From the IMG/VR virus record IMGVR_UViG_3300037245_002365: a stretch of DNA of 64,000 nucleotides; one strand, 5' to 3'. The stretch's first letter is position 1. Each line of letters starts with the position of its first letter. Positions 29,845 through 47,984 of this stretch are shown piece after piece. The notes beneath the pieces were generated by a model. The model searched no databases and was not told where the DNA came from. It saw only the letters and a list, made by a program, of their open reading frames with translations. The translations under genes and the position numbers were made by a program. Source of the DNA: a virus (taxonomy: Duplodnaviria > Heunggongvirae > Uroviricota > Caudoviricetes).

Positions 29845-30037
29845 TGAAAAAGATATTCAAGAGGATATGCCAGAACTACGTATATGTAGTAAATGCAAAT
29901 CATTAGTTAATAAACTGTATGGTTTGATGGTCCCGCACTTGTGTAAACAGTGCTATGACAAAATGGTGCAATATCAAGAACAAGTTGATTATAGATGCAG
30001 CTTATGTAAACAAATTTATGCAAAATGTTGCTGTTAA
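29831..30037 (+). CDS. Cys-rich small protein
   Basis: CSKCK...CKQCYDK...CSLCK. Confidence 0.45.
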   Translation: MQNHDEKDIQEDMPELRICSKCKSLVNKLYGLMVPHLCKQCYDKMVQYQEQVDYRCSLCKQIYAKCCC

Positions 30038-30065
30038 TATAGAAGAAGTATTAGAGGATAAAAAA

Positions 30066-30863
30066 ATGAGTGATAAAACGTCTCTCGGAGACAGAATGAA
30101 AATATATGAGAAACTTAACGCTACAGCGTTGATGCCTCATTTACCAGTAATAGCAAGGATTGATGGCCGGGCATTCCATACATTTTGTAGGGGCTTTGAT
30201 AAGCCTTTCGATATGAGAATGGTAGCAGCCATGCAATCAACAACGGAATTTATATTTAATGAATTCAATCCTATGTTTGCACATACATTCAGTGATGAAA
30301 TAAACCTAATGTGGTATTATCCAGAACCTGAACAACAAATGGTGTTTGGTGGAAAAATACAAAAACTTTGCTCAGTGCTAGCTTCAGCAGCTACACTTAG
30401 GTTCAATGAAGCAAAACTGGAACTCTTTGAGGGTAATCCAATTGCTGAAAGAAAAGCAATGTTTGATTGTAGAGTATGGAATGTACCTACAACAGATGAA
30501 GTAGCTAACTACTTTGTATGGCGTGAACAAGATGCAGCTCGTAATAGTTTACAGATGCTTTCAAGAGCACATTATTCACACCATGAGTTGGAAGGCAAGA
30601 AACAGGCTGACATGCACGAGATGTTATATAAGAAAGCCATTAATTGGAATGAACAGCCGATGATATTAAAAGCCGGTAGTTATTACAGACCGAACCCAAC
30701 AACTCCTGCGGAACTTGTAAAATCTCGATATCCAATGCTTGATGGAAGCTTACTGAACCTGCCATATAGTACGGATGGTAAAACTCCACATGAGCAACGA
30801 CTAAGATTCATATTTAGACCAGAAGAAAGGGAATACGATGGCACAGAAAAGAAAGCTGAGTGA
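30066..30863 (+). CDS. Thg1-like protein (tRNA-His guanylyltransferase family, 3'-5' nucleotide addition)
   Basis: VIARIDGRAFHTFCRGFDKPFDMRMVAAMQ...FAHTFSDEINLMWYY matches the Thg1 core VVVRLDGRNFHRF...YGQSDEYSFVF. Start placed at the ATG after a GAGGA RBS. The ORF track shows an upstream extension. Confidence 0.6.
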   Translation: MSDKTSLGDRMKIYEKLNATALMPHLPVIARIDGRAFHTFCRGFDKPFDMRMVAAMQSTTEFIFNEFNPMFAHTFSDEINLMWYYPEPEQQMVFGGKIQKLCSVLASAATLRFNEAKLELFEGNPIAERKAMFDCRVWNVPTTDEVANYFVWREQDAARNSLQMLSRAHYSHHELEGKKQADMHEMLYKKAINWNEQPMILKAGSYYRPNPTTPAELVKSRYPMLDGSLLNLPYSTDGKTPHEQRLRFIFRPEEREYDGTEKKAE

Positions 30864-31041
30864 TGAAGAATATATTGCAGACGATGGGGTATCTTGTCCT
30901 TACTGCGGTAAACCGGGCACACAAAATGATGGATCCTTTGAAATGGATGGGCCAACCGTGTGGCAAAACAACAGTTGTAATCTTTGTGGGGCAGAGTGGG
31001 AAGATTGGTATCAATTGGTCTTCATACAACCAAGGTCTTAG
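30838..31041 (+). CDS. Zinc-ribbon small protein
   Basis: CPYCGKPG...CNLCGAEW. Confidence 0.45.
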   Translation: MAQKRKLSDEEYIADDGVSCPYCGKPGTQNDGSFEMDGPTVWQNNSCNLCGAEWEDWYQLVFIQPRS

Positions 31042-31063
31042 ATAAACTTTATAAGTAGATCTT

Positions 31064-31073
31064 GGTATAAGAA
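31064..31073 (+). promoter_or_regulatory. GGTATAAGAA promoter-like motif
   Basis: Exact motif 35 nt upstream of the 31108 ORF. Confidence 0.45.
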
Positions 31074-31107
31074 CAATAGTAAATTTAAATTACAAGGTAA
31101 AAAGAAA

Positions 31108-31389
31108 ATGAATATTTTTCCGTGGATACTATTAATTATTCTTAGTGTCCTAATAATCAAATTTGGAAAAAGGGCTTTAAATTGGTTAGGCGACTTCATC
31201 GATAATACTAATGCTCCTTCGTCAGAAATGACGGATAGAGTTAAAGTAGCAAAGGGTGAAGTATCTGATCTCAAGGTTGAAAAGAAAACTCTTTCAACTG
31301 AAGTAAGTTCGGCAGGAAAGGCTAGTGATCTAAAGGCGGACATTGGCAAACTCAAAGGTAAACTAAAAACAAAGGAAGATAATGATTAA
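31108..31389 (+). CDS. Single-pass membrane coiled-coil protein, partner of the SPFH protein
   Basis: N-terminal TM helix, then a charged coiled coil. Its stop overlaps the next start. Confidence 0.55.
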   Translation: MNIFPWILLIILSVLIIKFGKRALNWLGDFIDNTNAPSSEMTDRVKVAKGEVSDLKVEKKTLSTEVSSAGKASDLKADIGKLKGKLKTKEDND

Positions 31390-32638
31390 AACATTATTGA
31401 CTAGATTCGCACCAGCATTGCTCCTAGTAGCAATTGTTGTTCTGGCTGTGTTCAGCCAACAGATTCTTGAAACAAACTCACGCGGCCAGTATCAAATTAA
31501 GCAGGCGGCTGTCACCGGTGACATGAGCGCACGCTTAGAACCCGGTATGTACGGCCAATGGTTTGGTGATATTGACACTTGGAACAAAGCGGAGACGTTT
31601 TATTTCACAGCTGACTTTGACGGCGAAGGTGATACTAAAGCAGATAAATCAATTGAAGTACGCTTCAATGATGGTTCTATCGCTAAAATATCCGGCACAG
31701 CTCGAATCACATTACCATACACTGAAGCTGAAGCAGTCGCTTTGGTTGCTGATCATGGTTATAAAAGTTACAAGGAACTAGCACAGAAATTGGTTCTTCC
31801 TTCGGTTCGAAATGCATTACGATCCAGCGCTAACTTGATGTCAGTACGTGAAAGTTATTCTGAAAACAGACTTGATTTTATTAACTGGTCCCGAGATCAG
31901 CTGCAAAACGGTTTGTATAATACAGAAGAGATTACGAAGAAAGTTACTGATATATTAAGTGGTGAACAGGTTACCAGGACATTCAAAACGATACAGAAAG
32001 ATGCCAGCGGTACTCCAGTTTATCAGTTCAATCCTTTTGATGGTAAGGGAATAACAATTTCAAACTTTGAAATTAAGTCATTCAATTACTCTCCGAAGGT
32101 ACGTGAGCAGATTGCGGCTCAACAAGCAGCTTTGATGGCTGTTCAGACCGCACGAGCATTAGCGAAAGAAGCTGAGCAAAAAGCACTTACTACAGAGGCT
32201 GAGGGAAAAGCTGAGGTTATGCGCGTTAAATATGAAAACGAGCAAAACAAAATCGCGGCTATCATCAAAGGCGAACAAAGGCGTGATGTTGCTGAGTTAG
32301 CAAAAGCTGAAGCCGGGTTCACCAAGGAAGCTCAAATCCTAATCGCAGACGGTGAGGCTTATCGTAAGAGAGAAGTCATGGCCGCCGATGGTGCATTGGA
32401 TAAAAAGCTAGCAGCATTAGTTACAATTAATGGAGCTTTTGCCAAGGCTGTTGAAAATCATGTTGGTGCTTGGGTACCATCCATCGTATTTGGTGGGGGT
32501 GGATCAGGAGGATCGTCTGATTTGACTAATGGTATGAACGGCGTTCAAAACATGGTTGATTTGTTGACTCTTGCAGCAGCAAAAAACCTGTCTCTTGATA
32601 TGACGCTACCAACAACGTCGAAAACGGCTGTTCAATAG
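31382..32638 (+). CDS. SPFH/band-7 (stomatin/prohibitin/HflKC-like) membrane protein
   Basis: N-terminal TM helix, then an SPFH-like domain. Ala/Glu/Lys-rich coiled coil (EAEQKALTTEAEGKAEV...AKAEAGF) and a Gly-rich C-terminus. Confidence 0.55.
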   Translation: MIKTLLTRFAPALLLVAIVVLAVFSQQILETNSRGQYQIKQAAVTGDMSARLEPGMYGQWFGDIDTWNKAETFYFTADFDGEGDTKADKSIEVRFNDGSIAKISGTARITLPYTEAEAVALVADHGYKSYKELAQKLVLPSVRNALRSSANLMSVRESYSENRLDFINWSRDQLQNGLYNTEEITKKVTDILSGEQVTRTFKTIQKDASGTPVYQFNPFDGKGITISNFEIKSFNYSPKVREQIAAQQAALMAVQTARALAKEAEQKALTTEAEGKAEVMRVKYENEQNKIAAIIKGEQRRDVAELAKAEAGFTKEAQILIADGEAYRKREVMAADGALDKKLAALVTINGAFAKAVENHVGAWVPSIVFGGGGSGGSSDLTNGMNGVQNMVDLLTLAAAKNLSLDMTLPTTSKTAVQ

Positions 32639-32870
32639 CCAGTTGACAAACGAGGATATATTCCTCACGAATGAATTGCGATGCCGGGCCCATTCGGGTC
32701 CGGCATTGTCATATGAGGAACTTTTTTTATTATGTTAATGGCAATTAAACTGTTAGGTGTTTTCATACTCATGTGTATGTCAATAACAGCAGCAGTATAC
32801 TTTACATGGAAATACGAGCATGTCATATTTGATGATGTGCTACCACCCTTAGACCCACAGGAGAATAACG

Positions 32871-33182
32871 ATGAAACAGACAAAGATATTTGAGTTAGTA
32901 AATACCACAACAGATAAAGTACTAACCACAGAAACTTTCTGTGAAAATAAATCATTGGATGACTTAAATGATTTTTACAAATCAAGTTGTACAGACATTC
33001 GTTGGAGACTGGCTGAGAATCAACTAATGGCTCCAATGGAATTTGAAAATAGAATGATAGCTGCGACTAGAACAACTAATCCACAATCCAATGGTGATTA
33101 TCTAATGATGGAACTTTTAAGATCATTAGGTTATGGCGATGGTGTAAGTGTTTTCTTGAATATAGAAAGGAATTATGAGTGA
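32871..33182 (+). CDS. Hypothetical protein
   Basis: 103-aa ORF. Confidence 0.5.
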   Translation: MKQTKIFELVNTTTDKVLTTETFCENKSLDDLNDFYKSSCTDIRWRLAENQLMAPMEFENRMIAATRTTNPQSNGDYLMMELLRSLGYGDGVSVFLNIERNYE

Positions 33183-33397
33183 TGGCAACCTATTCAGCAG
33201 AACCTTGGACAATTAGAAGACATGGAGGAGATGGAAGATTTAAAAATGCACTCACTAGCGTTATGGATAGCGATGGTATTGAAGTGTGTGATACTTTAAG
33301 TCTTGCCCTGCCTATTGAAACGTGTGAAGCTAACGCAAAAATAATAATAGCAAAAAGAATAGTAATTATGAACGCAATTAAAGAGGATATGAAATGA
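33179..33397 (+). CDS. Hypothetical protein
   Basis: 72-aa ORF. Confidence 0.45.
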   Translation: MMATYSAEPWTIRRHGGDGRFKNALTSVMDSDGIEVCDTLSLALPIETCEANAKIIIAKRIVIMNAIKEDMK

Positions 33398-33398
33398 A

Positions 33399-33683
33399 AT
33401 GGCAACTGATGAAAAAATTGAAGAAAAAGAATTAACGATAGACGAGAAAATAGAAAAGTTCTACATCGAGTCTATAGAAGCGATTGAAAAATATAGAGGA
33501 AAGTCGTGGTATGCATATTACCTACGTAAAAGCATACTAGGTAAATATGGCGAACACGAAAATTTAGTTGATTGGGCATCTCTATTAGAAAACCCTGCAA
33601 GATCAAAAGCACTTAGTACTCTTAGAAACCTTAAGATAGAATTAGGTGATGTTATCACTGAAGTAACGGGATATAGGGACTAA
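33399..33683 (+). CDS. Hypothetical protein
   Basis: 94-aa ORF. Confidence 0.5.
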   Translation: MATDEKIEEKELTIDEKIEKFYIESIEAIEKYRGKSWYAYYLRKSILGKYGEHENLVDWASLLENPARSKALSTLRNLKIELGDVITEVTGYRD

Positions 33684-33687
33684 TAAT

Positions 33688-33927
33688 ATGACTACAGCAG
33701 CAGAAGCACCAAATTTTACTTTAGAGGTAATTGAAACAGAACAGAACTGTCCATCATGCGAACAACCTTTGACTATCACAAAGATTAGAGATGCTATCTG
33801 CAATAGAAAAAAATGTCATGTAAGACTCTATGATATGAATGGTACATGGGTCATGCGTAAGGTGTGGTTCGATGAATATATCATGCCTATGATGGAAGAG
33901 ACTCTACCAGAGAATGCGGGAGCATAA
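33688..33927 (+). CDS. Zinc-ribbon small protein
   Basis: CPSCEQ...CNRKKCH. Confidence 0.45.
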   Translation: MTTAAEAPNFTLEVIETEQNCPSCEQPLTITKIRDAICNRKKCHVRLYDMNGTWVMRKVWFDEYIMPMMEETLPENAGA

Positions 33928-33929
33928 AA

Positions 33930-34397
33930 ATGTTAAATGAATCAAACGTAATAAATAGCTTTAGAGGTAAATATTTCTTTCTAAGTAACTTTTACGTTGT
34001 GTCACTTACCATGGATGATGGCAAAGAATATGCAACATCCGAGCACGCTTATCAAGCGGCAAAAATGGAAAGTAAAAAAGACGCAGAGAAAGTTAGGTTA
34101 GCTGCTAGTCCGAGTGTAGCTAAAAAATTAGGAAATGAATTAACAGCCAAAGAAGGTTGGGATTTCATTAAAATCGATATGATGAAAGATATCGTCGAAG
34201 TAAAGTTTTTCCAAAATGTTGAGATATACAAGAAATTATTAGAAACAGGTAAGGCCCACTTAGTAGAGGGCAACACTTGGAAGGATGATTTCTGGGGCGT
34301 GTATCAAGGCGTTGGGGATAACCACCTCGGAAAAATTTTAATGGAAATAAGAGAAGAAGCAAGTGATTGGGATATAGCTATCCTAACAACTAAGTAA
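33930..34397 (+). CDS. NADAR (YbiA/DUF1768) domain protein
   Basis: FRGKYFFLSNFY ... SEHAYQAAK ... DFWG ... LGKILMEIR match NADAR signature motifs (F-x-FYS-x-FSNF, EHYFQA-K, WG). Confidence 0.6.
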   Translation: MLNESNVINSFRGKYFFLSNFYVVSLTMDDGKEYATSEHAYQAAKMESKKDAEKVRLAASPSVAKKLGNELTAKEGWDFIKIDMMKDIVEVKFFQNVEIYKKLLETGKAHLVEGNTWKDDFWGVYQGVGDNHLGKILMEIREEASDWDIAILTTK

Positions 34398-34405
34398 GGA
34401 AAAAA

Positions 34406-34726
34406 ATGACAGCCGCAGTAGCCTCAATAGTAAAAATTGCTTATTTTATAACATACTTAGATGCTTTATATAGATCACCATTGTATACTTTTGGGCTAGG
34501 TTTAAAGGACAAAATTAAAAATGCGGAATCTCCAGTATTTATGACTTGGAGAAAAAAAGCAAAAATATTATATAATAATGGTGTATGTATAAAGTGCAGT
34601 GAAAATACAGATGAAACTATTTATTGGTCTTGGGTATCAGGGTCAGTTAGTATGAAAAGTAATCAAAAATATAAATGCAACTTATGTGAGAGCACCGTAA
34701 TGGTGCACTTTAAAGATGCTTTTTAG
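34406..34726 (+). CDS. Cys-rich hypothetical protein
   Basis: CIKCSEN...CNLCES. Confidence 0.5.
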   Translation: MTAAVASIVKIAYFITYLDALYRSPLYTFGLGLKDKIKNAESPVFMTWRKKAKILYNNGVCIKCSENTDETIYWSWVSGSVSMKSNQKYKCNLCESTVMVHFKDAF

Positions 34727-34885
34727 GGAAAACAATGAGTGAAGAAAAAGAATTTAATCTTTTAGTCAAAACAGATAAAGAGATCAAGTTTCGCAGTAAA
34801 GACTACAATTTTTACTTTAAGTTTGGAATACCAGTAGAAGATGTTCGACTCTACCACGGAGAGTACATGGACTAAGGATTGAATA

Positions 34886-35341
34886 ATGAAGAAAAGACTA
34901 GGATTTGTGAGCAACTCAAGTAGCTCAAGTTTTATTTTGGCATTCAAAGAGAAGCCAGAAACAATAGAGGACTTAAGATTACTCCTCTTCCCAGACAATG
35001 AATTAAATGAAACGTACCATGAGAGTGACTACTCGTGGTATCCGGAAGCCCAGAGATATCTTAGAATAACTATAGGTGAAGCATTATCATGCCTTCTACG
35101 TGATTTATTGGAAGAAAGGGGCACAAGAAATCTTAAAGCAGTAGAACAATTATTTAGCTGTGGATGGTCTGGTGATCATGATATGGACCAAGAAGCCAAA
35201 GAATTCCTAGAAAAGCACGCAGACTGTAAAATATACAGCGTCGGCTATTCTGATGAAGATGGGCGTTTTTATAGTGCTATGGAGCATGAAGGATTATTTA
35301 ATAATCTAGGATCACACGTATATACAATTAGTCAACACTAA
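34886..35341 (+). CDS. Hypothetical protein, paralog of 35352
   Basis: Shares the first 16 aa, [16 protein letters not shown], and about 50 nt of DNA with the next gene. Confidence 0.6.
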   Translation: MKKRLGFVSNSSSSSFILAFKEKPETIEDLRLLLFPDNELNETYHESDYSWYPEAQRYLRITIGEALSCLLRDLLEERGTRNLKAVEQLFSCGWSGDHDMDQEAKEFLEKHADCKIYSVGYSDEDGRFYSAMEHEGLFNNLGSHVYTISQH

Positions 35342-35351
35342 GGAGAATAAA

Positions 35352-35630
35352 ATGAAGAAAAGATTAGGATTTGTGAGTAACTCAAGTAGCTCAAGCTTTG
35401 TTATTCCCCTAGAGGATATAAATGCAAAGCAGCTACGGCAAATACAGCATCATGATGGCCTTGCCAATAAAGGTAAGGGTAAAAATGACCCCAGTGATGC
35501 TTGGAGTATAGAAATAGATGATGAAGATGAAGTCGTTCGCGGCTCAGTCTTTATGGATAATTTTGATATGTATAACTATCTGAAGAAGAGAGTTAAAGTT
35601 GACATGGACTTAATAGAGTGGGGCGAATAA
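35352..35630 (+). CDS. Hypothetical protein, paralog of 34886
   Basis: Same N-terminus. Confidence 0.6.
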
Positions 35631-35631
35631 A

Positions 35632-35997
35632 ATGATAACATATGGAATAATAACAGCAATCGTGCTTATGCACTTCTTTGCTGATTTCTTTTTTCAAAAC
35701 AATAAGATGGCGACAAACAAAAGTTCAAGTAATTTTTGGTTAGGCGTGCATACAAGTGTGTATGCACTAATCTTCTTTATTGGTAGTTTATTCTTCCTGC
35801 CTATTTCCGCAGCATTCGCAGCGATATATGCAGTGATCAATGGAGTCTTTCACTTTATGGTGGATTATATGTCTTCACGGATAACCTCGCGTTTATACAA
35901 AGCAAAAGAAATGCACTGGTTTTTCACAGTAATAGGAGCCGATCAAGCAATACATATGTTAGTCCTATTTGGCTCGTACATATTATTAATGGGATAA
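35632..35997 (+). CDS. Membrane protein (DUF3307-like, HFxADF motif)
   Basis: Three TM helices. [10 protein letters not shown] motif. Confidence 0.5.
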
Positions 35998-36000
35998 ATT

Positions 36001-36504
36001 ATGAAGGAAAATAAAGATAGAAACGCATTTCCAGGATCAACCACTGAAATATACTGGAAAGGTATGACTAAAAGAGAATACATGGCGACTAAAGCGCCAC
36101 CAAGACCTCATTGGTTCCAACCAGAAGAGTTAGGAAGTAAACCGGAAAAGCCGGAAGCTTCATTTGAGTATAACAAAAAGATGTACCATAGAAATCACTT
36201 CGATCATGTTGGTGTGCTAACAGAAATGAATACAGGCCAATTAAAAGATGCCCATGTAGATAGTGATGGAAATTGGTGGACCTTTTCTGAGAAAACTAAA
36301 GATGATAAAGAACAAAAATCGATTACTCCACACTCGCATCTTTGGGACGACATAATGTTTGATGAAAAGAAATGTGCAGAGTATAATAATGACTTACGTA
36401 TATGGAATGAAAGAAACCATTTACACGGAGATATCCAATGGGCATACTATTGGGCTGACGCAATGTTAGGAGAATCTCTAGTTGTAGAAAACCAGGAAGA
36501 ATAA
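36001..36504 (+). CDS. Hypothetical protein
   Basis: 167-aa ORF. Confidence 0.55.
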   Translation: MKENKDRNAFPGSTTEIYWKGMTKREYMATKAPPRPHWFQPEELGSKPEKPEASFEYNKKMYHRNHFDHVGVLTEMNTGQLKDAHVDSDGNWWTFSEKTKDDKEQKSITPHSHLWDDIMFDEKKCAEYNNDLRIWNERNHLHGDIQWAYYWADAMLGESLVVENQEE

Positions 36505-36941
36505 TGATTACTAATAAAGAAAGCACAACACACGGTGCTGGATATCCAATACATTTTTGTAATGCATGTCAGCAGTATGTCAATGAAGAAGGTAAATGCA
36601 GATGCACAACCGTAGGAAAACCCTATAATCCAAACATGACACTACCACCGGATATTTCTCTCCCTTCTATAGCTGATGAATACTTACCAGCTATGGTAGA
36701 AATAAACAATGAAGATACAATTAATATTTGTGATAAAGTTAATATTATATTAGCTTTACCAACAAAAGAGACCAAAGCTGTAATGGTTACTGGTACAGTA
36801 CTTGATATGCCGAGTAGTCCAGGTGGCTGTTGGCACATCAGATCAGAAAATGGTAAACTTGTTTACGTAGATACCTTCTTTTCAATGACTTTACTAGAGA
36901 AATTTGTGTCGGAGACTTGCGATGAAGTGGATACCGATTGA
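36504..36941 (+). CDS. Hypothetical protein
   Basis: 145-aa ORF. Confidence 0.55.
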   Translation: MITNKESTTHGAGYPIHFCNACQQYVNEEGKCRCTTVGKPYNPNMTLPPDISLPSIADEYLPAMVEINNEDTINICDKVNIILALPTKETKAVMVTGTVLDMPSSPGGCWHIRSENGKLVYVDTFFSMTLLEKFVSETCDEVDTD

Positions 36942-37392
36942 ACAGGAAAAACCTAAAGAAGGTGAAGTAGTACTATTACAATACAAAACTCCAACGAGCC
37001 TTGGATGTATGGGTACTGGCATGGCTGTAGGACCATTTATAGATGACGAGTTTAACAACGTTATAGTATGGCAAAGAATAACTCCTTATCAGAAAGTTGA
37101 AGAACATATGAGTGATTTAAAATTCGAATGGAAAAAACGGTATCGCAAATTAGGCGATAAAGAGAAGATCACTATGGCCGTTATAGGTGATCCATTCTCT
37201 CAAAGATTAATGGAAGCAACGATACATAAAGAAACAAAAGATCTTTGGGTATGTGCTGTTTACGGGATGAAAGGTATTATGTTTATGAGTGGCGGTAAAA
37301 ACGAATATGAAGCAAAATTAGTTGCTGAAACTCATATAGTAAATGTACTTAACACCATGGTCAGAAACTATGAACACATTATAGGTAAATAA
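36922..37392 (+). CDS. Hypothetical protein
   Basis: ORF. Start moved to MKWIPIEQ. Confidence 0.5.
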   Translation: MKWIPIEQEKPKEGEVVLLQYKTPTSLGCMGTGMAVGPFIDDEFNNVIVWQRITPYQKVEEHMSDLKFEWKKRYRKLGDKEKITMAVIGDPFSQRLMEATIHKETKDLWVCAVYGMKGIMFMSGGKNEYEAKLVAETHIVNVLNTMVRNYEHIIGK

Positions 37393-37393
37393 A

Positions 37394-37741
37394 ATGGAAA
37401 TAAAACAAAATAAAATACTTCAAGAAATAGTTGAATTAGATGAAGAACAACAGGAAGAAGTAGTCAAAACTGGTTATGAATGTCCTGATTGTAAAGGAAT
37501 AGGTAAAGTATACTATATCCCAGAAGGTTCTGTAGGTTGGGGTAGTAGAGAATTCCCTTGCGGTAGGTGCGGTGGTTTAGGTAAAATTCTTACAAGAAGG
37601 ATTTTTGATAGAAGGCTCGCCCCACAAGTTGAATACCTAGACCCAAACGCTATAGTAGGACAAGTCTTATTGTTTGCAAAAGAGGGCATAGTACGTGTTG
37701 AAAGACGTAATCACGCACAAAGAAAGGTGGATGTAAACTAA
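37394..37741 (+). CDS. DnaJ-type zinc-finger small protein
   Basis: CPDCKGIGKV...CGRCGGLGKI. Confidence 0.5.
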   Translation: MEIKQNKILQEIVELDEEQQEEVVKTGYECPDCKGIGKVYYIPEGSVGWGSREFPCGRCGGLGKILTRRIFDRRLAPQVEYLDPNAIVGQVLLFAKEGIVRVERRNHAQRKVDVN

Positions 37742-38199
37742 TGCTTCTCATAGATCCAGCCTTTGCAGGCACGCTAACTTCAAAAATGATAAATTGCATA
37801 CATTGTAATTGCTATATATTTGAGGGTGACATAAATTATCACACCATAGAACCTCCTAGAAACCCCGAACACTTTCCTGTGGCCGAGAGACCACCTATAT
37901 GCGAAAGCTGTAAGGTAGGAATGGAACACCCAAACAGGGTGCTTCCAATGGTATTCAAAGTAGACGAACTTCCTGGATGGATTATCGCTTCAGACACTGC
38001 AGCGTTCTCTCCTAAACATCATCCTACTAGTCCAAATGTTATTTGGATTCGTAATGGTATTACTGGGTACAAGTATTTTACTACAATGCTTCATGAAGTA
38101 GGACATTGGGTAATAGATAAAACTGGTGGAGACATTCATGATAAGGATGTACGTCAAGAAAAGTATGATGCATTATGCGTCAAGTATCTAACCAAATAA
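37741..38199 (+). CDS. Putative zinc metallopeptidase (HExxH)
   Basis: MLHEVGHWV is a HEVGH zincin motif. No other support. Confidence 0.4.
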   Translation: MLLIDPAFAGTLTSKMINCIHCNCYIFEGDINYHTIEPPRNPEHFPVAERPPICESCKVGMEHPNRVLPMVFKVDELPGWIIASDTAAFSPKHHPTSPNVIWIRNGITGYKYFTTMLHEVGHWVIDKTGGDIHDKDVRQEKYDALCVKYLTK

Positions 38200-38200
38200 T

Positions 38201-38210
38201 GGTATAAGAA
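38201..38210 (+). promoter_or_regulatory. GGTATAAGAA promoter-like motif
   Basis: Exact motif upstream of the 38238 ORF. Confidence 0.45.
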
Positions 38211-38237
38211 GGTAAATAAACATTTACTGGAGAAAGC

Positions 38238-38447
38238 ATGAACATGTCTTTGGATGAGCGAGAGATAAAAGTATTGAAATTATTTTCAGTATTTAGCTCT
38301 ATTATCATAATAGCTTTTGTAGGAGCAATAGTCCTGATTAGGTTATTATGGGGAGACGCCTCTACTGTAGCAGAAGCATGGACCGGTGCCACATCATCAC
38401 TGCTCTTTGGATTTACATATGGAATAATAAGGAGCTTCAACAAATAA
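38238..38447 (+). CDS. Small membrane protein
   Basis: 69 aa, hydrophobic. Confidence 0.5.
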   Translation: MNMSLDEREIKVLKLFSVFSSIIIIAFVGAIVLIRLLWGDASTVAEAWTGATSSLLFGFTYGIIRSFNK

Positions 38448-38459
38448 CCATAATAAGGA

Positions 38460-38750
38460 ATGAATGAGTATTACATAGTGACCACTAATCATGATGGTCG
38501 CAAACAGTTTCTTGTTGATAGAAAGAAAATTAGATATAAACGATTTTGGTCACCACGTTTGAGTATTGCGCAGCCTTTTGATATAAGAGAGGAGGCAGAA
38601 GAACGTATGGCAAAATTGAAATATAATTCTCCTGAAATTGTCAATAAAAAAGAAGCTATAAAAATTGCTCAAGTTCTGAAAGCAGAATTAGGTGTTAAAT
38701 ATGAACAGTTTCAACCAGTTAAAACTCTGGCGCAACTCAGGCATAAATAA
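38460..38750 (+). CDS. Hypothetical protein
   Basis: 96-aa ORF. Confidence 0.5.
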   Translation: MNEYYIVTTNHDGRKQFLVDRKKIRYKRFWSPRLSIAQPFDIREEAEERMAKLKYNSPEIVNKKEAIKIAQVLKAELGVKYEQFQPVKTLAQLRHK

Positions 38751-38842
38751 CAGCAAAGAATTACTGGGCACTAGGTATACCACAACAGATCGTGGCTCAG
38801 TAACTACACAATAACAAAAAAAGAAAGTAAGGTTAACATTAC

Positions 38843-39202
38843 ATGGATAATTATGTAAAGGACTTCTGGGACTGGTTCGCGGGTTTACTAGGTCAAAGGA
38901 CCACCGAGAAAAAACTGGCGAAAGCGGGCAAGAAAGTTGATAAGGCATTGGGAGCCTTTGATAAGGTTGCTACTACCCTAGAAGGTGTTGCCACGGAATT
39001 CACCGCAGTTTCTGATGATCTCCAAACCGAGATTGCAGAGGCCGAAGAAGAGTTAAGACTCAAACGTGAATCCCTCAAGGACACCGACGCACGGGTTGCC
39101 GAAGCCAAGAATACTGCCTCCAGGGTACGTGAAGTATTTGGCCTCGTCAGCGCATCCGAAACCCCCGCCGAAGCTACCGACGATACCAACACATCTGACT
39201 AA
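38843..39202 (+). CDS. Coiled-coil hypothetical protein, GC-richer than its surroundings
   Basis: 119-aa ORF. Confidence 0.55.
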   Translation: MDNYVKDFWDWFAGLLGQRTTEKKLAKAGKKVDKALGAFDKVATTLEGVATEFTAVSDDLQTEIAEAEEELRLKRESLKDTDARVAEAKNTASRVREVFGLVSASETPAEATDDTNTSD

Positions 39203-39204
39203 AG

Positions 39205-39864
39205 ATGTTTCGCAAGTATGAGAAAACATATCGCATACTTGTTCCTCAGATTAACGTCAAAGGAAAGCACTTCCTTTCCAAAGACGAGATGCGCGCATTA
39301 CTTGGCGGGGAGGTAACCCTTCTCGAAAAGTTAGACGGCGCTAACACTGGCATTATCCCAACGCGAGACTGGTTCCGTTTGCAAAAACGGGGCTCTCTCG
39401 TGGATGCCAGTGAACATCATCAATTTAATTTTTTTAAAGCATGGTCTGAGCAGAACTATGAAAAGCTGATCGATATACCAAAACATTATAGGGTGTATGG
39501 GGAGCTTATGCGCTGTGTACACACAGTAAACTATAATAAACTTCCAGATTGGTTTGTAGTATTTGGTATCTTTGATACTAAATTAATGCAATACTTAAGC
39601 TGGAATAATGTGATAGCACTTTGTGATGGATGGGGACTTAGTACAGTACCAACCATAGCAAATGGTGTTCACGTAGAAAAAATGGACCTTTTCAACCTAA
39701 TACCAGATGTATCAGGTTATGGGGACGAGGCTGCGGAGGGCCTTGTAGTATGGAACTACAGAAGACAGATGAGAGGCAAACTTGTAAGAGAAGAATTTGT
39801 TAAACATATGGATAACTCCGGTCACTGGATGACCAAGGAGTTGAAATTTAACTCTTTGATTTAG
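39205..39864 (+). CDS. Rnl2-like RNA ligase, nucleotidyltransferase domain only
   Basis: N-terminus MFRKYEKTY matches the T4 Rnl2 N-terminus MFKKYSSLENHY. Motif I is EKLDGAN (KxDGxN). At 219 aa it lacks a C-terminal domain. Confidence 0.55.
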   Translation: MFRKYEKTYRILVPQINVKGKHFLSKDEMRALLGGEVTLLEKLDGANTGIIPTRDWFRLQKRGSLVDASEHHQFNFFKAWSEQNYEKLIDIPKHYRVYGELMRCVHTVNYNKLPDWFVVFGIFDTKLMQYLSWNNVIALCDGWGLSTVPTIANGVHVEKMDLFNLIPDVSGYGDEAAEGLVVWNYRRQMRGKLVREEFVKHMDNSGHWMTKELKFNSLI

Positions 39865-39888
39865 TTTAAAATTTAACCAAACAAAATT

Positions 39889-40632
39889 TTGGAATTATTA
39901 ATAAATGCTGGCGATTTTGAGTTACTCACACCGCCAGACGAATTGCGGGCACAAATGCGCCGTATGGAAAGAGCAGGTAGAACCTGCTATCAGTCAGAGA
40001 TCGGTGAAATCACCGATGTCACTGCTGAAAACTTTGTAAGAAAAATATTGCATCAGTTCCACCATGAGAGTGTAATTGAACATAGCTCTTTAACAGTGAA
40101 ATTTACAGGTGTATGCCGTGGATTCACTCATGAATTAGTACGTCACAGATTAGCGTCTTTCTCTCAGGAAAGCACACGATATGTAGACTATGCTAAATCT
40201 GAAACTAAGGGTGCTGCAGACATAGTAGACCTTGATAGATTTGAATTACGTTGTGTTGCACCACCACACAGAGATGTGGATGAAAAATTTCAAGTCCATG
40301 ACAATTTCACTGGGCATGTAATGAAGTCTTACAGAGATATGCTTGAAGAAATGGAAGCCAACTACAAAGCTTTACGTAAAGCTGGTTGGGTACCACAAGA
40401 TGCAAGGCAAATACTGCCAATAGCAACTGAAAGTGATATTGTTGTTACGGCTAACTGGAGAGAATGGAGACACATTCTTACAATGAGAACGGGTAAACCT
40501 GCTCATTGGGAAATTAGGCGTGTAATGTGCAACTTACTGCAAGTATTACAGGAAACTATCCCAGTAATATTTGAAGATTTTGTAGAAGCAGGTACTAGCG
40601 ATGGTGTTCTATATTATTCAAGATTCAAGTAA
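39889..40632 (+). CDS. thyX: Flavin-dependent thymidylate synthase ThyX
   Basis: ELVRHRLASFSQESTRY is the ThyX RHRxxSxxxxSxRY signature. The start appears to be TTG. Confidence 0.75.
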   Translation: MELLINAGDFELLTPPDELRAQMRRMERAGRTCYQSEIGEITDVTAENFVRKILHQFHHESVIEHSSLTVKFTGVCRGFTHELVRHRLASFSQESTRYVDYAKSETKGAADIVDLDRFELRCVAPPHRDVDEKFQVHDNFTGHVMKSYRDMLEEMEANYKALRKAGWVPQDARQILPIATESDIVVTANWREWRHILTMRTGKPAHWEIRRVMCNLLQVLQETIPVIFEDFVEAGTSDGVLYYSRFK

Positions 40633-40676
40633 ACACCTTTGTCGCCTTAAAAATTAACCACAAATATGAGTAATAT

Positions 40677-41222
40677 ATGACTGATAAGAAAATTTACTAC
40701 ACAGGAATCGGATCACGCTCAACACCCGCAGCTTATATGCTCTTGATGGAGAATTTTGCTGAAAGGCTATCAAGGCTAGATATAATTTTAAGATCTGGTG
40801 GTGCAGATGGAGCAGACAGTGCATTTGAAAAGGGAGTAATAGGAGATTTAAAAGAAATCTTTCTCCCATGGCCAAATTTTAATCATAATAAATCTGATTT
40901 ATGTAATATAAGCGTAGAAGCATACAAACTTGCTTGGGAACATCACCCACATTGGGCAGCCTTAAAGCAATCAGTTAGAAAATTACATGCAAGAAACGTT
41001 CATCAGATTTTAGGTAAGGACTTGAAGACTCCGTCTTCAGCAGTTATTTGCTGGACACAAGATGGTGCAAACACAGCTAAAGATTGTACTAGATTAACTG
41101 GCGGTACAGGGATGGCTATCAGAATAGCACATGAGCACAAAGTGCCTGTCTATAATATAAAGAACAGAGAAGACTACTCTAAATGCATAGAGTGGATTAC
41201 TAATTTAGGGGACCAAAAATGA
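40677..41222 (+). CDS. DprA/Smf-like SLOG-family Rossmann-fold protein
   Basis: YYTGIGSRSTP...ILRSGGADGADSAFEKGV matches the DprA pattern vGsR-x-P...SG-A-GiD-aAH. Confidence 0.5.
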   Translation: MTDKKIYYTGIGSRSTPAAYMLLMENFAERLSRLDIILRSGGADGADSAFEKGVIGDLKEIFLPWPNFNHNKSDLCNISVEAYKLAWEHHPHWAALKQSVRKLHARNVHQILGKDLKTPSSAVICWTQDGANTAKDCTRLTGGTGMAIRIAHEHKVPVYNIKNREDYSKCIEWITNLGDQK

Positions 41223-41404
41223 TTTCAAAGATTAAAAAAGTTATTCTAATATATGACTGTGAATATTTAGAAGAAGAGGTAGAAGTTGAAATTACTGATA
41301 ACATTGTATTGTCAGAGTATACTCGTGGATTAGATGTGATTGCTGAAGTGTATTGTTCGTGTATGCGTTTACACAAATTCATACTAAAAAAAGAAGAACG
41401 ATGA
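41219..41404 (+). CDS. Hypothetical small protein
   Basis: 61-aa ORF coupled to its neighbours. Confidence 0.4.
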   Translation: MISKIKKVILIYDCEYLEEEVEVEITDNIVLSEYTRGLDVIAEVYCSCMRLHKFILKKEER

Positions 41405-42564
41405 AATTTACACACGACAAATTACAAGAGTATATAGATAAGAAAATGCTGATGCGACAGAAGCATCCAGTATTCGATTACTATATCTATAACTATACTC
41501 CAGAGGTACAATTTAAGAAACTCTGGAACCCTACGCTTATGGCATGTAGAGGCCTAATTTTGGATGGAGACAGCAATGTTATTGCTCGACCATTTACTAA
41601 GTTCTTTAATTACTCTGAATTAGGACCATCTGCAAGAGGAACACTCAATAGACGGGTTAGTGAAGTCTACGAAAAAATGGACGGTAGCTTGGGTATAATG
41701 TACCCCCACCCTGGTTTTGAAGAGTTTAGTATTGCAAGCAGAGGAAGTTTTACCTCTCCGCAGGCACTATTCGGTACTGATTTATTGAATAATAAATACA
41801 GGAAGTGGACTAAACATTTTAGATATGAACCAGAAAATTTCCCAGAGAACAGTATTTTTCTAGCAGAAAAAACAGTAATTTTTGAGATAATTTATCCCGA
41901 AAACAGAATAGTAGTTAACTATGGCGATATGGAAGATATGGTTTATCTAGGTGTTGTTGAAAACAGTACCGGAAACGATCTTTATCCAGTAATAGAAAAA
42001 GACTGGCCCTTTCCTGTTGTTCGTAGATACACAGAATTAGAAAACCTCACTATGGATGAATTGGTAGAGCGTGTTAACAACCACGAAGATTACGGTAATA
42101 ACCGTGAAGGTTACGTGGTAAAATTTAAGAACGGCTCTCGAACCAAATTGAAATATCCTGATTATATCAGGTTACATCGAATAATGACTGATATGAGTGA
42201 GAAACGAATTCTTGAAGCAGTGATCCAAGGACCGCTGTCTGAAGAATTCTTGGATGGTGTTCCAGATGAATGCTATGATTGGCTGAAAGATGTAGAGAAA
42301 CGATTCAGAGCTGAATACGAAACAATCAAATTATCTTGCCAGCTATTCTATCAACAGTGCCAATTAAAACAGATAGGGGACGCACCAAAGTTCACCAGAA
42401 AAGATTGGGCATTAGCATTTCTTAAGACGCCTTACCCAGCAGTGCTATTTAATATGCTAGATGGAAATGATTATTCACCAGCGATTTGGGCCAAAATTGA
42501 GCCTAAACCCGGAAAACAAACCTTTCAGACGTCTGGATATAATAGAACTAAAGAAAAGACTTGA
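41401..42564 (+). CDS. rnlA: RNA ligase 1 (T4 Rnl1 family)
   Basis: LMACRGLILDGDSNVIARPFTKFFN ... EKMDGSLG ... IASRGSFTSPQA aligns with T4 Rnl1 [27 protein letters not shown] ... KEDGSL ... KSKGSIKSEQA. Start placed at the ATGA overlap. Confidence 0.7.
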   Translation: MKFTHDKLQEYIDKKMLMRQKHPVFDYYIYNYTPEVQFKKLWNPTLMACRGLILDGDSNVIARPFTKFFNYSELGPSARGTLNRRVSEVYEKMDGSLGIMYPHPGFEEFSIASRGSFTSPQALFGTDLLNNKYRKWTKHFRYEPENFPENSIFLAEKTVIFEIIYPENRIVVNYGDMEDMVYLGVVENSTGNDLYPVIEKDWPFPVVRRYTELENLTMDELVERVNNHEDYGNNREGYVVKFKNGSRTKLKYPDYIRLHRIMTDMSEKRILEAVIQGPLSEEFLDGVPDECYDWLKDVEKRFRAEYETIKLSCQLFYQQCQLKQIGDAPKFTRKDWALAFLKTPYPAVLFNMLDGNDYSPAIWAKIEPKPGKQTFQTSGYNRTKEKT

Positions 42565-42707
42565 CAAAATACTTAATATATAGCTATATTAAAATATGGT
42601 AACAAATGAACATAAATACGCCTCAGCGAATTTAACGCAAGATTTTAGTGGGAGAGACCCACTAGGAGTTTTGGTTACCTAAGTTTATACTTATTATTTT
42701 GTTAAAC

Positions 42708-42741
42708 AACCCCGGTAACCTCAAAAGTTCCGGGGTTTTTG
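42708..42741 (+). terminator. Rho-independent terminator just before the first tRNA
   Basis: Stem AACCCCGG/CCGGGGTT followed by a T run. Confidence 0.65.
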
Positions 42742-42763
42742 ATTTTTGACATCGCGTATTATT

Positions 42764-42837
42764 GTCTCAGTAGCTCAGTCTGGTAGAGCGCCGTCCCTCC
42801 AAGTCGGATGTCGCAGGTTCAAATCCTGTCTGGGACT
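42764..42837 (+). tRNA. tRNA, most likely Gly (anticodon TCC); an alternative reading of the loop gives Trp (CCA)
   Basis: Hand-folded. Acceptor GTCTCAG/CTGGGAC (one G-U), D-arm GCTC/GAGC, T-arm GCAGG-TTCAAAT-CCTGT. Anticodon stem CCGTC/GTCGG has one T-T mismatch. Loop is CCTCCAA. Confidence 0.65.
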
Positions 42838-42863
42838 CACAATTAGGAAAACCAAATATTAAT

Positions 42864-43346
42864 ATGATTGATTTACAACAGTTTGTAAGATTTATACAAA
42901 GCGGCGGTGCTGCATATGATGGCTATGCTTATGGCTATGGTCGTGAACAACGTGGCCAAGCCATATATGAAATAAGAATCCATCCAGAAGATTTTGAAAC
43001 GCTTCGAGAGCAGCTTGCTAGAGCTTACGGAGGTATGCCTATGTATCAACATGACCCTTATGGACGTCAAGATACCTACAGACAAATTATGGGCCAAAAC
43101 TTCCAAATAGATAATAATATAGCTATCGGAAGTATAGGTGTTTTTTTTCGACCGCCACAACAAATAGAATTGAGTGGTCCAACAGAAAAACCGAAGGAAC
43201 CACCAGTATCTATGAAAGAGGTTTGTGATAGTATGATACAGACTTTAACAGAAGAAACAAAAGACATGAACTACCTGAAAACGACAGTAGCTGATGTACA
43301 GCCTATAAGAGGAAGGATGCCGAACGATGAAGAGAGGGTATTTTGA
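42864..43346 (+). CDS. Hypothetical protein
   Basis: 160-aa ORF directly after the tRNA. Confidence 0.55.
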   Translation: MIDLQQFVRFIQSGGAAYDGYAYGYGREQRGQAIYEIRIHPEDFETLREQLARAYGGMPMYQHDPYGRQDTYRQIMGQNFQIDNNIAIGSIGVFFRPPQQIELSGPTEKPKEPPVSMKEVCDSMIQTLTEETKDMNYLKTTVADVQPIRGRMPNDEERVF

Positions 43347-43764
43347 AATAGGGATTATAAATGGCAAAGATAAGGCTAATATAGGTACTCTATGGCGCTC
43401 TGCATATCAATTAGGGGCATCGGGTATTTTCACAATAGGTGCTAGATACTCACACCAAAAAAGCGACACAACAAAAGCTATAAAACACATACCATTAAGA
43501 CAGTACGAGACGTTTGAAGAATTTATGAAGATCAAACCGAAGGAAGCACGCTTAATCTGTGTAGAAACGGGAGGCTCACCACTAAAAAGGTTTGTACATC
43601 CTACTTCTGCAATATACTTATTAGGCGCGGAAGATACAGGTATACCAGAGTATATACAAGTCGAGAGCGACTACATTATTTCACTACAATCTGTAAATAT
43701 ATCATCATATAATGTATCTGTAGCAGGAACCTTAGTTATGTATGACAGGATGTTTAATAAATAA
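43327..43764 (+). CDS. SpoU/TrmH-family RNA 2'-O-methyltransferase
   Basis: IGIINGKDKANIGTLWRSAYQLGASGIF matches the SPOUT motif (PEN-GN-GTL-RSA-AFGA) and is followed by LLGAEDTGI. Confidence 0.6.
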   Translation: MKRGYFEIGIINGKDKANIGTLWRSAYQLGASGIFTIGARYSHQKSDTTKAIKHIPLRQYETFEEFMKIKPKEARLICVETGGSPLKRFVHPTSAIYLLGAEDTGIPEYIQVESDYIISLQSVNISSYNVSVAGTLVMYDRMFNK

Positions 43765-43776
43765 CCAAAAATTAAA

Positions 43777-44211
43777 ATGATTAAAGATCATTATGTTGCA
43801 GGCTTTGTCTTTGACAAAGAACTAGAACATATCTATTTAATTAGAAAAAACAGACCAAGTTGGCAGGAAGGCTTGCTAAATGGAATCGGCGGACACATAG
43901 AGGCTAATGAGTCTCCACTATCCGCAGTGGTTAGAGAGTTTATAGAAGAAACTGCCACTAAAGTAAATGCAGAAGATTGGCATCATATTGCTACCATATC
44001 CAGCAAACCAGATAAAACTTCTGGATTCCCATGGGAATGCTGGTTTTTCATGGCAGTTACTGGACAGACTCCAGTAACCAATACAGATGAAGAAGTTGTT
44101 AAAGTTAGATTAACTGACTTACATGATGGGGACGTAATACCAAATTTAAACTGGTTAATACCTTTAGCACTGCATGGTGAGAAAAGTTGGCCAGTGATAG
44201 CAAATGAGTAA
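43777..44211 (+). CDS. Nudix hydrolase
   Basis: Nudix box GGHIEANESPLSAVVREFIEETA (Gx5Ex7REUxEExGU). Confidence 0.7.
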   Translation: MIKDHYVAGFVFDKELEHIYLIRKNRPSWQEGLLNGIGGHIEANESPLSAVVREFIEETATKVNAEDWHHIATISSKPDKTSGFPWECWFFMAVTGQTPVTNTDEEVVKVRLTDLHDGDVIPNLNWLIPLALHGEKSWPVIANE

Positions 44212-44221
44212 AGGAACATAA

Positions 44222-44653
44222 ATGATATTTTCAGCAGGTGTGATGATCAGAAGAACATCCGATAATAACGTTTTAATATGTCGACCCCTCATGGGTAAGA
44301 CAGCACGCTCTTTTCCAAAGGGAGAAGTTGATGACGGAGAAACTTACGCCCAAACAGCAAAAAGAGAAACTTTTGAAGAAACAAATATAGACCTTCCATT
44401 AGAATCTCTAAAGTATATGGGTCAGTTTAAATATGTTAAGAGAAATAAAACTATCGTTCTATTCTCTGCAACAATAGATGACAAGGATTTACCGGATGAG
44501 CTTATTTGCTCATCAACGTTCCAGCTAAAGGGCAAAGGCCCTCAGTTACCAGAAGTAGATAAATTTGAATGGGTAACCATTTCAGATGCTATCGAACTTG
44601 TGCATGAAGCACAATCAAGGGTCGTTAAGAATTACGTGACAGAAAAAATGTAA
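44222..44653 (+). CDS. Nudix hydrolase (second copy)
   Basis: Nudix box GEVDDGETYAQTAKRETFEETNI. Confidence 0.7.
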   Translation: MIFSAGVMIRRTSDNNVLICRPLMGKTARSFPKGEVDDGETYAQTAKRETFEETNIDLPLESLKYMGQFKYVKRNKTIVLFSATIDDKDLPDELICSSTFQLKGKGPQLPEVDKFEWVTISDAIELVHEAQSRVVKNYVTEKM

Positions 44654-44661
44654 GGAACCGA

Positions 44662-44961
44662 ATGAAAGTTGTATATGATACTGCAGGTATGGAAGAAATG
44701 ATAGACAGTGCAGGTAAAAGGGTATTACACCATCCGAAAGGAAGCTGTAAAAACCAAGAAGCTGGCTGTCCAGTACATAACCCATCAGAGCACAAATTAA
44801 ATGAGGCACCCTTGTTTTTTGCTGATGAGTTATTGTTTCCAGTATTCTTTAGAGTATGCGAACATGGACATAGACATCCAGATCCAGACTCTTTACGTTA
44901 TTATAGAGATATGGGATATTCATTAAATGACAACCACGAATGTGATGGTTGTTGCACATAA
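44662..44961 (+). CDS. His/Cys-rich small protein (metal-binding?)
   Basis: HHPKGSCKNQEAGCPVHNPSEH...CEHGHRH...CDGCC. Confidence 0.5.
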   Translation: MKVVYDTAGMEEMIDSAGKRVLHHPKGSCKNQEAGCPVHNPSEHKLNEAPLFFADELLFPVFFRVCEHGHRHPDPDSLRYYRDMGYSLNDNHECDGCCT

Positions 44962-45062
44962 AAATTATGGAGGGAGTGTAAGGATGTCTAAGTACGTACT
45001 AGAGATACCTTACTACGAGAGGATGACTCAACTCCCTCCGTCACTTTAAAAAAGGAAATTAA

Positions 45063-45335
45063 ATGAGAGATATAAAAGAAGTTATTAGCAGAATGCTTGA
45101 AGTAATTAATGAGCAATCAGAAATAAGCGTTTACATTGAATCGCTTATTGCCGGACTGGAAGATATTCGACTTAGGGTTGATAAAAACCAATCCAACGAC
45201 TTGGCTTGGGGAGGTATAGGACATTATCTTTCAACTTATATGCTCAACTCAAACGATCCAGAATCACCGGAGTGGACAAGAGAGGTTGCCGCATTATTTG
45301 TTGGCAAAACCTACATAGCTCCAGTAACGGAATAG
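45063..45335 (+). CDS. Hypothetical protein
   Basis: 90-aa ORF with a GGAAAT RBS. Confidence 0.5.
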   Translation: MRDIKEVISRMLEVINEQSEISVYIESLIAGLEDIRLRVDKNQSNDLAWGGIGHYLSTYMLNSNDPESPEWTREVAALFVGKTYIAPVTE

Positions 45336-45337
45336 AA

Positions 45338-45577
45338 ATGCTTGACAACAAAAACTTCACAACAATAGTCTATTATGCAGAAGACATAAAAAAGTGGGAA
45401 TATAAACTTACTACCGGCAAACTGATCCTACAAGATGGACGATGGTTTGTTGAAGGTGGGTTTACTATTTCTGGTGGAGCTACTACAGCTGCAAAAGCTT
45501 ATCGCTCAGCAAGAATAAGTTTAGGGCTCAGTAAGTTATATAATTTGCTTATATGGCTTTTGGACAAATACAGATAG
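45338..45577 (+). CDS. Hypothetical protein
   Basis: Starts at the ATG right after the previous stop. The upstream extension shown in the ORF track (from 45206) is not trusted. Confidence 0.45.
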   Translation: MLDNKNFTTIVYYAEDIKKWEYKLTTGKLILQDGRWFVEGGFTISGGATTAAKAYRSARISLGLSKLYNLLIWLLDKYR

Positions 45578-46056: not shown

Positions 46057-46063
46057 GGTTTGA

Positions 46064-46104
46064 GAAGCAAGCAAAGTTTATTAATTATTTTGCTTGCTTT
46101 TCGA
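46064..46104 (+). terminator. Rho-independent terminator
   Basis: GAAGCAAGCAAAG...TTTGCTTGCTTTT. It overlaps the -35 region of the HNH promoter. Confidence 0.6.
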
Positions 46105-46122: not shown

Positions 46123-46127
46123 TAAGT

Positions 46128-46761: not shown

Positions 46762-46803
46762 CGGGGTTGGCCGGTTACCCGTTGAATCGAAAAACGGCAT
46801 TTT

Positions 46804-47981: not shown

Positions 47982-47984
47982 AAA

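Follow-up and report, generated by a model that had tools for sequence, protein, structure and literature searches.

The window analyzed here, a stretch of 64,000 nucleotides of phage DNA, encodes a NADAR-domain protein whose closest experimentally tested relative, as judged by sequence comparison, is AdfN of phage Bas32. We propose, with about even confidence, that this protein functions as an AdfN-like (Bas32-type) orphan antitoxin, which would cleave guanine-linked ADP-ribose on phage DNA that has been modified by a DarT1-type toxin. The analysis itself established which domain and fold the protein has, which residues are conserved, to which clade it belongs and that a partner gene is absent. 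The original prediction that the gene is a candidate eraser of ADP-ribosylation with a plausible role in counter-defense gains support from the similarity to AdfN-Bas32 (43% identity; PMC11825919) and from the retention of the predicted catalytic residues.

Phage NADARs were catalogued between 2012 and 2022 and are carried by 48% of medium and jumbo phages (Iyer et al. 2022), the demonstration that they act on guanine-linked ADP-ribose followed in 2023-2024 (including PMC11543638), and in 2025 phage NADARs, those of the Bas32 clade included, were shown to counter DarTG1 (PMC11825919). The window gene is a further, fairly divergent example of a known counter-defense, an idea already published for its clade, and it opens no new question, given that publications of 2023-2025 cover the concept and the biochemistry as well as the role in phages. 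If active, it would add one more divergent sequence, from a jumbo phage of ~228 kb, to the clade of Bas32-type orphan NADARs, which also holds many bacterial and archaeal stand-alone NADARs, and it would hint at guanine-directed ADP-ribosylation defenses in the host of this phage.

Sequence, fold and predicted active site

The open reading frame of the NADAR protein was confirmed as predicted with respect to its coordinates, strand, start and stop codons, and length (Table 1), and is the only NADAR copy within the 64-kb window. The stop codon of the upstream ORF is located between a putative Shine-Dalgarno-like element and the NADAR start codon, with a gap of 2 nt to the ATG, and the downstream ORF starts 8 nt past the NADAR stop codon. 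Given these short gaps, the NADAR gene can be considered one unit of a dense block of small genes on the same strand. A scan for promoter-like sites was uninformative because the number of sites observed (27) was at the chance level (28.4 expected).

The YbiA/DUF1768 motifs that had been noticed in the sequence are borne out by matches to Pfam PF08719 (DUF1768; residues 14-143, E 8.6e-28, 98.1 bits with a gathering score of 35.1), to TIGR02464, an equivalog-domain model of NCBIfam named "riboflavin biosynthesis intermediates N-glycosidase" (83.5 bits, cutoff 73.7), to PHROG 1017 (E 3.4e-42) and to the PDB sequences of E. coli YbiA (2b3w, E 1.2e-19) and the Phytophthora NADAR (8bau, E 2.5e-12). 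The profile of the T4-type NADARs, PF08010 (Phage_30_3), did not match the protein at E <= 1, the score with the model of the DS32_2 NADAR-family anti-phage protein (NF053876) was 68.3 bits, under the cutoff of 240, and a PADLOC search yielded no DarG match and a weak match to the candidate PDC-M42C only. The AlphaFold model built from 120 homologs has a mean pLDDT of 94.6 and a pTM of 0.88, and the sole significant Foldseek matches of this model in the PDB are E. coli YbiA (2b3w; TM 0.80, rmsd 1.9 A, 36-37% identity), with which it shares a common core fold, and the NADAR of Phytophthora nicotianae in complex with ADP-ribose (8bau; TM 0.79, 27% identity). Together, AlphaFold and Foldseek delineate a single domain with the NADAR fold, in which small beta-sheets flank a helical core; the NADAR core begins at about residue 7-14 of 155, and there is no extra domain.

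In the Phytophthora NADAR, ADP-ribose is contacted by E43, K50, R79, W89, R93, E125, D130 and W133 (Schuller et al. 2023, PMC11543638), and the respective positions of the window protein are occupied by E38, K45, N69, W77, K81, E113, D119 and W122. Thus, of the eight residues that bind ADP-ribose or take part in catalysis, seven (all except for N69) are kept, and these seven show little or no variation in the set of 120 nearest homologs, E113 being invariant; E38 and K45 correspond to E36 and K43, the residues that were mutated in AdfN-T4. The position of N69, which is that of the pyrophosphate ligand R79 of Phytophthora, is variable, with R in 65, K in 23, N in 11 and Q in 9 of the 120 homologs. 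The position of E125 is a subfamily marker that contains Glu in the YbiA family, Asp in the DarT1-linked NADARs and His in the T4-like phage NADARs (PMC11543638), and the Glu found there (E113) assigns the window protein to the YbiA family in the broad sense. Considering the conservation of the residues implicated in ADP-ribose binding and catalysis, the window NADAR looks catalytically competent.

Relationship to AdfN-Bas32 and other NADARs

AdfN-Bas32 (bas32_0066, QXV80247.1) is a protein of Escherichia phage IrisVonRoten (Bas32 in the BASEL collection), where it is the product of the T5-like "swarming motility protein YbiA" gene. It aligns with the window protein over 139 aa (43% identity, E 7e-38). 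Against the profile of the 120 nearest homologs of the window protein, AdfN-Bas32 scores 179.5 bits, compared with 130.8 bits for E. coli YbiA (36% identity), 22.7 bits for the AdfN-Bas60 type (bas61_0107; BLASTP E 0.002) and 16.8 bits for AdfN-T4 (gp30.3; BLASTP E 0.01). In a neighbor-joining tree without bootstrap support, Bas32 is placed inside the set of 120 homologs and YbiA outside of it, and the clade motif EGNxW.D.[FY]WG is present in Bas32 and absent from YbiA. AdfN-Bas32 has been shown to neutralize DarT1 in E. coli and to let RB69, T5 and Bas25 form plaques again on DarTG1 hosts; it is not effective against DarTG2, which modifies thymidine, and it groups with archaeal NADARs (Johannesman et al. 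2025, PMC11825919).

The two proteins have much in common. Each is an orphan NADAR of about 150 aa encoded by a phage, with neither an N-terminal extension nor an adjoining toxin gene, and each contains the EGNTW.D.[FY]WG motif, with Glu as the residue that defines the subfamily. The NADAR cores are also equally acidic, with a pI of 5.98 for the window protein and 5.94 for Bas32, so charge provides no argument against a DNA substrate; the acidity of the whole window protein (pI 5.45) had been considered as such an argument and was rejected for this reason. The differences include the position of Phytophthora R79, which is Arg in AdfN-Bas32 and Asn (N69) in the window protein, and the gene context, which in Bas32 consists of nucleotide-metabolism genes (nrdB, DHFR, thyA, RNase H) and in the window, unlike Bas32, of small genes of no known family inside a region of RNA-repair and tRNA genes. 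Furthermore, of the two proteins, only AdfN-Bas32 has been validated by experiment (PMC11825919).

E. coli YbiA shares with the window protein the catalytic Glu, Lys, Glu, Asp and Trp, and both pass TIGR02464, but YbiA lacks the G-N-x-W signature and contains E-HTEND in its place. The ybiA gene is chromosomal and belongs to a LexA-controlled operon together with dinG and rhlE. The DarG1 proteins, the NADAR antitoxins associated with DarT1 (the BC4488 family; those of E. coli C7 and Geobacter lovleyi), are members of the same superfamily and presumably perform the same chemistry on guanine-linked ADP-ribose. They are characterized by a basic N-terminal extension with a presumed role in DNA binding, by Asp at the defining position and by an adjoining darT1 gene (PMC11543638), and the window protein lacks all three features, having no such extension, Glu in place of Asp and no darT1 gene next to it; a search of the PDB with the clade profile reached no DarG1 structure at E <= 1. 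The AdfN-T4 (gp30.3; PF08010) and AdfN-Bas60 types are phage orphan NADARs with demonstrated anti-DarTG1 activity (PMC11825919) whose relationship to the window protein is remote, and the T4 type, in addition, contains His at the defining position and depends on a T-even phage factor. By these comparisons, the DarG1, T4-type and Bas60-type NADARs are all far more distant from the window protein than Bas32 is.

Gene neighborhood, proposed function and alternatives

The coordinates of the NADAR gene and of the other features of the window that are discussed below are given in Table 1.

Table 1. Location of the NADAR gene and other features in the 64-kb window
Feature	Position	Strand	Remarks
Tandem array of paralogs	3660-6149		six to seven diverged genes, ~96-147 aa
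RNA-repair/translation block	29955-47747		together with the tRNA genes at 42764-57331
Thg1-like tRNA 5'-end enzyme	29955-30863
SPFH/Band-7 membrane protein	31382-32638		418 aa
Putative Shine-Dalgarno-like GGGAG	33918-33922	+	7 nt before the NADAR ATG; read from the sequence
Stop codon of the upstream ORF	33925-33927
NADAR gene	33930-34397	+	ATG start, TAA stop, 155 aa
Four-gene block	34406-35630		starts with the ORF downstream of NADAR (start 34406)
Small gene of the four-gene block	34886-35341
Small gene of the four-gene block	35352-35630
Rnl2-type RNA ligase	39205-39864
ThyX	39889-40632
Rnl1	41353-42564
tRNA genes	42764-57331		12 genes
SpoU 2'-O-methyltransferase	43327-43764
Nudix protein	43777-44211
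Nudix protein	44222-44653
Metallophosphoesterase	47091-47747
DUF4326 protein	57732-58289		185 aa
Nicotinamidase-like protein	59140-59940		266 aa
VWA protein	59952-60695		directly after the nicotinamidase-like gene
PP2C phosphatase	60696-61523
Kinase-like protein	61542-63242		566 aa; 33-34% identical to two uncultured huge-phage proteins (LR756511, LR745208)

Both genes flanking the NADAR gene encode small proteins with Cys-x-x-Cys motifs and weak, sub-threshold matches to zinc-ribbon Pfam families. When the small flanking genes were scanned directly against Pfam and PHROG, these searches revealed no confident family, nothing DarT-like and no ADP-ribosyltransferase, and DarT and other ADP-ribosyltransferase families are also absent among the annotated neighbors of NADAR. 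At a larger scale, the region is a dense RNA-repair/translation block which, including the start of the tRNA array, lies within ~15 kb of the NADAR gene. In a related phage contig encoding a NADAR protein that is 76% identical to that of the window, the gene order from the RNA ligase through to the metallophosphoesterase is kept, with NADAR upstream, and the SPFH gene is also kept upstream of NADAR, whereas neither Thg1 nor ThyX is shown at this locus. The SPFH protein itself is 29% identical to the SPFH proteins of crAss001-like Bacteroides phages and 36% identical to that of an uncultured huge phage (LR756500). The four-gene block between the NADAR gene and a DUF3307 gene is missing at that position in the related contig, which implies either an insertion in the window or a deletion in the related contig; two of the genes of this block (Table 1) encode proteins that share an N-terminus of 16 residues and are otherwise dissimilar.

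In three distant phage contigs with NADARs that are 44-52% identical to the window protein, the order of the block is not kept, no RNA-repair gene is found within 8 kb and there is no recurrent neighbor. Similarly, clustering of the neighbors in 80 cellular loci identified no recurrent partner, be it a toxin, a rib gene or an RNA ligase; the largest non-NADAR cluster, with representatives in 10 of the 80 loci, proved to be an antisense ORF artifact. Given this lack of recurrent partners, the NADAR gene is best described as a stand-alone accessory gene, the context of which does not settle the substrate. The lack of an adjoining toxin gene and of a conserved partner also makes it reasonable to view the protein as an eraser.

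With respect to the AdfN-like function, we infer an enzymatic activity, a substrate (guanine-linked ADP-ribose on DNA) and a biological role. Most likely, the phage makes a single-domain NADAR N-glycohydrolase alongside its other small accessory proteins. The conserved pocket formed by E38, K45, W77, K81, E113, D119 and W122 would bind the ADP-ribose moiety, and the enzyme would cleave the N-glycosidic bond between ADP-ribose and the guanine base. The mark of a host DarT1-type toxin on the phage DNA would be reversed in this manner, such that replication could proceed, with the protein acting as an orphan "antitoxin" in counter-defense. Every NADAR subfamily tested so far removes ADP-ribose from guanine in vitro, and the tested NADARs reverse guanine (DarT1-type) and not thymidine (DarT2-type) ADP-ribosylation. 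The anti-DarTG role originally suggested for the protein therefore holds for DarTG1-type systems and not for those of the DarT2 type, and should be rephrased as anti-DarTG1-type. Because the in vitro activity on guanine is common to the subfamilies and the specificity in vivo differs, homology does not fix the physiological target. In particular, YbiA and T4 gp30.3 are active in vitro and yet do not rescue E. coli from DarT1, so 43% identity to AdfN-Bas32 does not guarantee the same specificity in vivo. Several other observations count against the AdfN-like function, namely, the presence of N69 at the R79 position, the match to TIGR02464, the abundance of RNA-repair and tRNA genes rather than DNA-metabolism genes in the neighborhood, and the wide spread of the clade among bacteria and archaea without a conserved partner gene.

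The neighborhood could alternatively be taken to indicate that the protein erases ADP-ribose not from DNA but from guanosine or cytidine of tRNA, mRNA or rRNA, where a host ADP-ribosyltransferase that targets RNA would have placed it, as part of a region dedicated to RNA repair and protection of translation, which we consider unlikely. NADARs of every subfamily can free guanosine in RNA of ADP-ribose, with some acting on cytidine as well; the gene is embedded among those for a Thg1-like enzyme, two RNA ligases, SpoU, two Nudix proteins, a metallophosphoesterase and 12 tRNAs, in the same order as in the related contig, and an association between NADARs and RNA repair has been noted before (Iyer et al. 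2022). However, the two contigs are close relatives, so that the conserved order is weak evidence of a functional link, none of the three distant contigs has an RNA-repair gene within 8 kb of NADAR, and in the window itself NADAR is separated from the ligases by 5-10 kb and about ten unrelated small genes. Moreover, a guanine- or cytidine-directed RNA ADP-ribosyltransferase has not been reported as an anti-phage defense, and CmdT, which modifies adenine, is listed as being reversed by CmdA. A more specific version, under which NADAR would be the "base-repair" arm of a conserved phage RNA-repair/tRNA block that counteracts an undescribed host defense based on an RNA-targeting ADP-ribosyltransferase, appears decidedly unlikely. 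There is also a low probability that the protein acts on or sequesters small ADP-ribose derivatives, such as N-glycosidic immune signals derived from NAD, or binds an ADP-ribosylated effector without catalysis. It has been argued that low-molecular-weight derivatives of ADP-ribose are the targets of most NADAR, Macro, SLOG and Nudix domains of phages (Iyer et al. 2022), and another phage NADAR, from the Retron-Eco1 study as cited in PMC11825919, is described there as requiring no enzymatic activity. The window also encodes Nudix, DUF4326 and nicotinamidase-like proteins, which belong to NAD/ADP-ribose metabolism, but 10-25 kb separate them from NADAR, and other contigs show no such linkage. 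The NADAR of the Retron-Eco1 study is reportedly U56, an ADP-ribose-binding inhibitor of Retron-Eco1. Hydrolysis of an immune signaling molecule has been shown for no NADAR, and the window protein keeps the full catalytic set, which a pure binder would not need.

Two further explanations involve metabolism and self-regulation. That the protein is a YbiA-like damage-control N-glycosidase acting on reactive intermediates of the riboflavin pathway, i.e., the product of an auxiliary metabolic gene without a role in defense, is improbable. The score above the TIGR02464 cutoff, the identity to E. coli YbiA, the Glu typical of the YbiA family (E113) and the "ribA/ribD-fused uncharacterized protein" labels of many database relatives are all compatible with such a function. 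Nevertheless, the NADAR is fused to neither RibA nor RibD, the Pfam annotation on record for the window includes no riboflavin genes, no rib gene recurs beside members of the clade in the cellular loci, and riboflavin damage control is of no obvious use to a lytic jumbo phage. The protein is also closer to AdfN-Bas32 than to YbiA, and TIGR02464 effectively spans a large part of the superfamily. The original prediction named, as one part of what would speak against an eraser, a profile search that places the protein among riboflavin-intermediate N-glycosidases only. The protein does match the respective model, but this check does not discriminate between the two functions because YbiA, too, can take ADP-ribose off guanine in vitro. 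Finally, the protein might antagonize or tune an ADP-ribosyltransferase of the phage itself, for self-immunity or temporal control, which we regard as highly improbable. The precedent comes from T4, where the NADAR gene 30.3 is located ~2.8 kb from alt; NADARs are co-expressed with ADP-ribosyltransferases in T4-like phages (Iyer et al. 2022), and in myxobacteria the YarT toxin has a YbiA-type NADAR as its antitoxin. The recorded Pfam annotation, which covers genes at 4.4-64 kb of the window, includes no ADP-ribosyltransferase family, and none was detected among the directly scanned flanking genes, although divergent transferases could escape detection and the window covers 64 of ~228 kb; again, no neighbor recurs in any related locus.

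Source phage and other genes of the window

An identical NADAR protein is encoded on a metagenomic contig of ~228 kb (JGI 3300043172). The size of this contig, the 12 tRNAs and the phage-type genes are phage-like, and the window has a G+C content of 37.7%, with nearly all genes on one strand. The source is an uncultured jumbo phage of ~228 kb. A megablast search with 5 kb around the NADAR gene against 50,697 phage records detected no relative at the nucleotide level, a few window proteins are ~34-48% identical to proteins of uncultured huge phages, and tBLASTn searches with the SPFH, Rnl1 and kinase-like proteins retrieved only matches of 28-36% identity, to unrelated or uncultured huge phages.

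Homologs of the NADAR protein were detected in 462 phage records, all with identity of at most 49%, and a scan of 185,579 species genomes identified no NADAR that is more than 49% identical to the window protein. The clade is common in cellular genomes, and its cellular members, with 41-49% identity, include those of Planctomycetota, Clostridia and Anaerolineae and, among the archaea, those of Nitrosotalea and Methanobrevibacter; this wide spread, which includes archaea, fits the published grouping of AdfN-Bas32 with archaeal NADARs (PMC11825919). In many public phage records, members of the clade bear names such as "GTP cyclohydrolase II", "swarming motility protein" and "putative riboflavin biosynthesis protein", which are probably misleading and appear to have been carried over from RibA-fused plant and bacterial homologs or from the swarming phenotype of ybiA.

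The two Nudix hydrolases and the nicotinamidase-like hydrolase that were originally noted as possible processors of ADP-ribose or NAD breakdown products were all recovered as such. The two Nudix ORFs match Pfam NUDIX with E 1.5e-11 and 3.3e-15, respectively, and among families and PDB entries the best matches are scattered across MutT, RppH, Ap4A hydrolase, Dcp2 and NudE, all far under the curated cutoffs. Located directly after the SpoU and Rnl1 genes, the Nudix pair is no less compatible with processing of RNA 5' ends than with hydrolysis of ADP-ribose. The nicotinamidase-like protein matches PDB 2h0r (E 1.7e-7) and the PncA model NF008623 (E 1.1e-9), and contains intact QNDF, WPEHC, KG and xCV motifs along with an insertion of ~40 aa. 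The recorded Pfam annotation of the window lists no NAD-rebuilding genes of the Nampt, NMNAT, Adps or Namat type, and a pathway that would join NADAR with the Nudix and nicotinamidase-like proteins is a matter of speculation. The location of a phage nicotinamidase gene beside a kinase/phosphatase/VWA trio is unusual, and this cluster may be related to the handling of NAD or nicotinamide.

The DUF4326 protein (PHROG 464, E 4e-36) is a stand-alone protein encoded ~24 kb from NADAR. DUF4326 has been proposed to process phosphates on ADP-ribose breakdown products, and its viral fusions often involve SLOG, Macro and NADAR domains (Iyer et al. 2022). At the other end of the window, the paralogs of the tandem array, for which no family match is on record, show 24-63% mutual identity; the start of each gene in this array overlaps the end of the previous one, and many of the copies end with WxTLKE.
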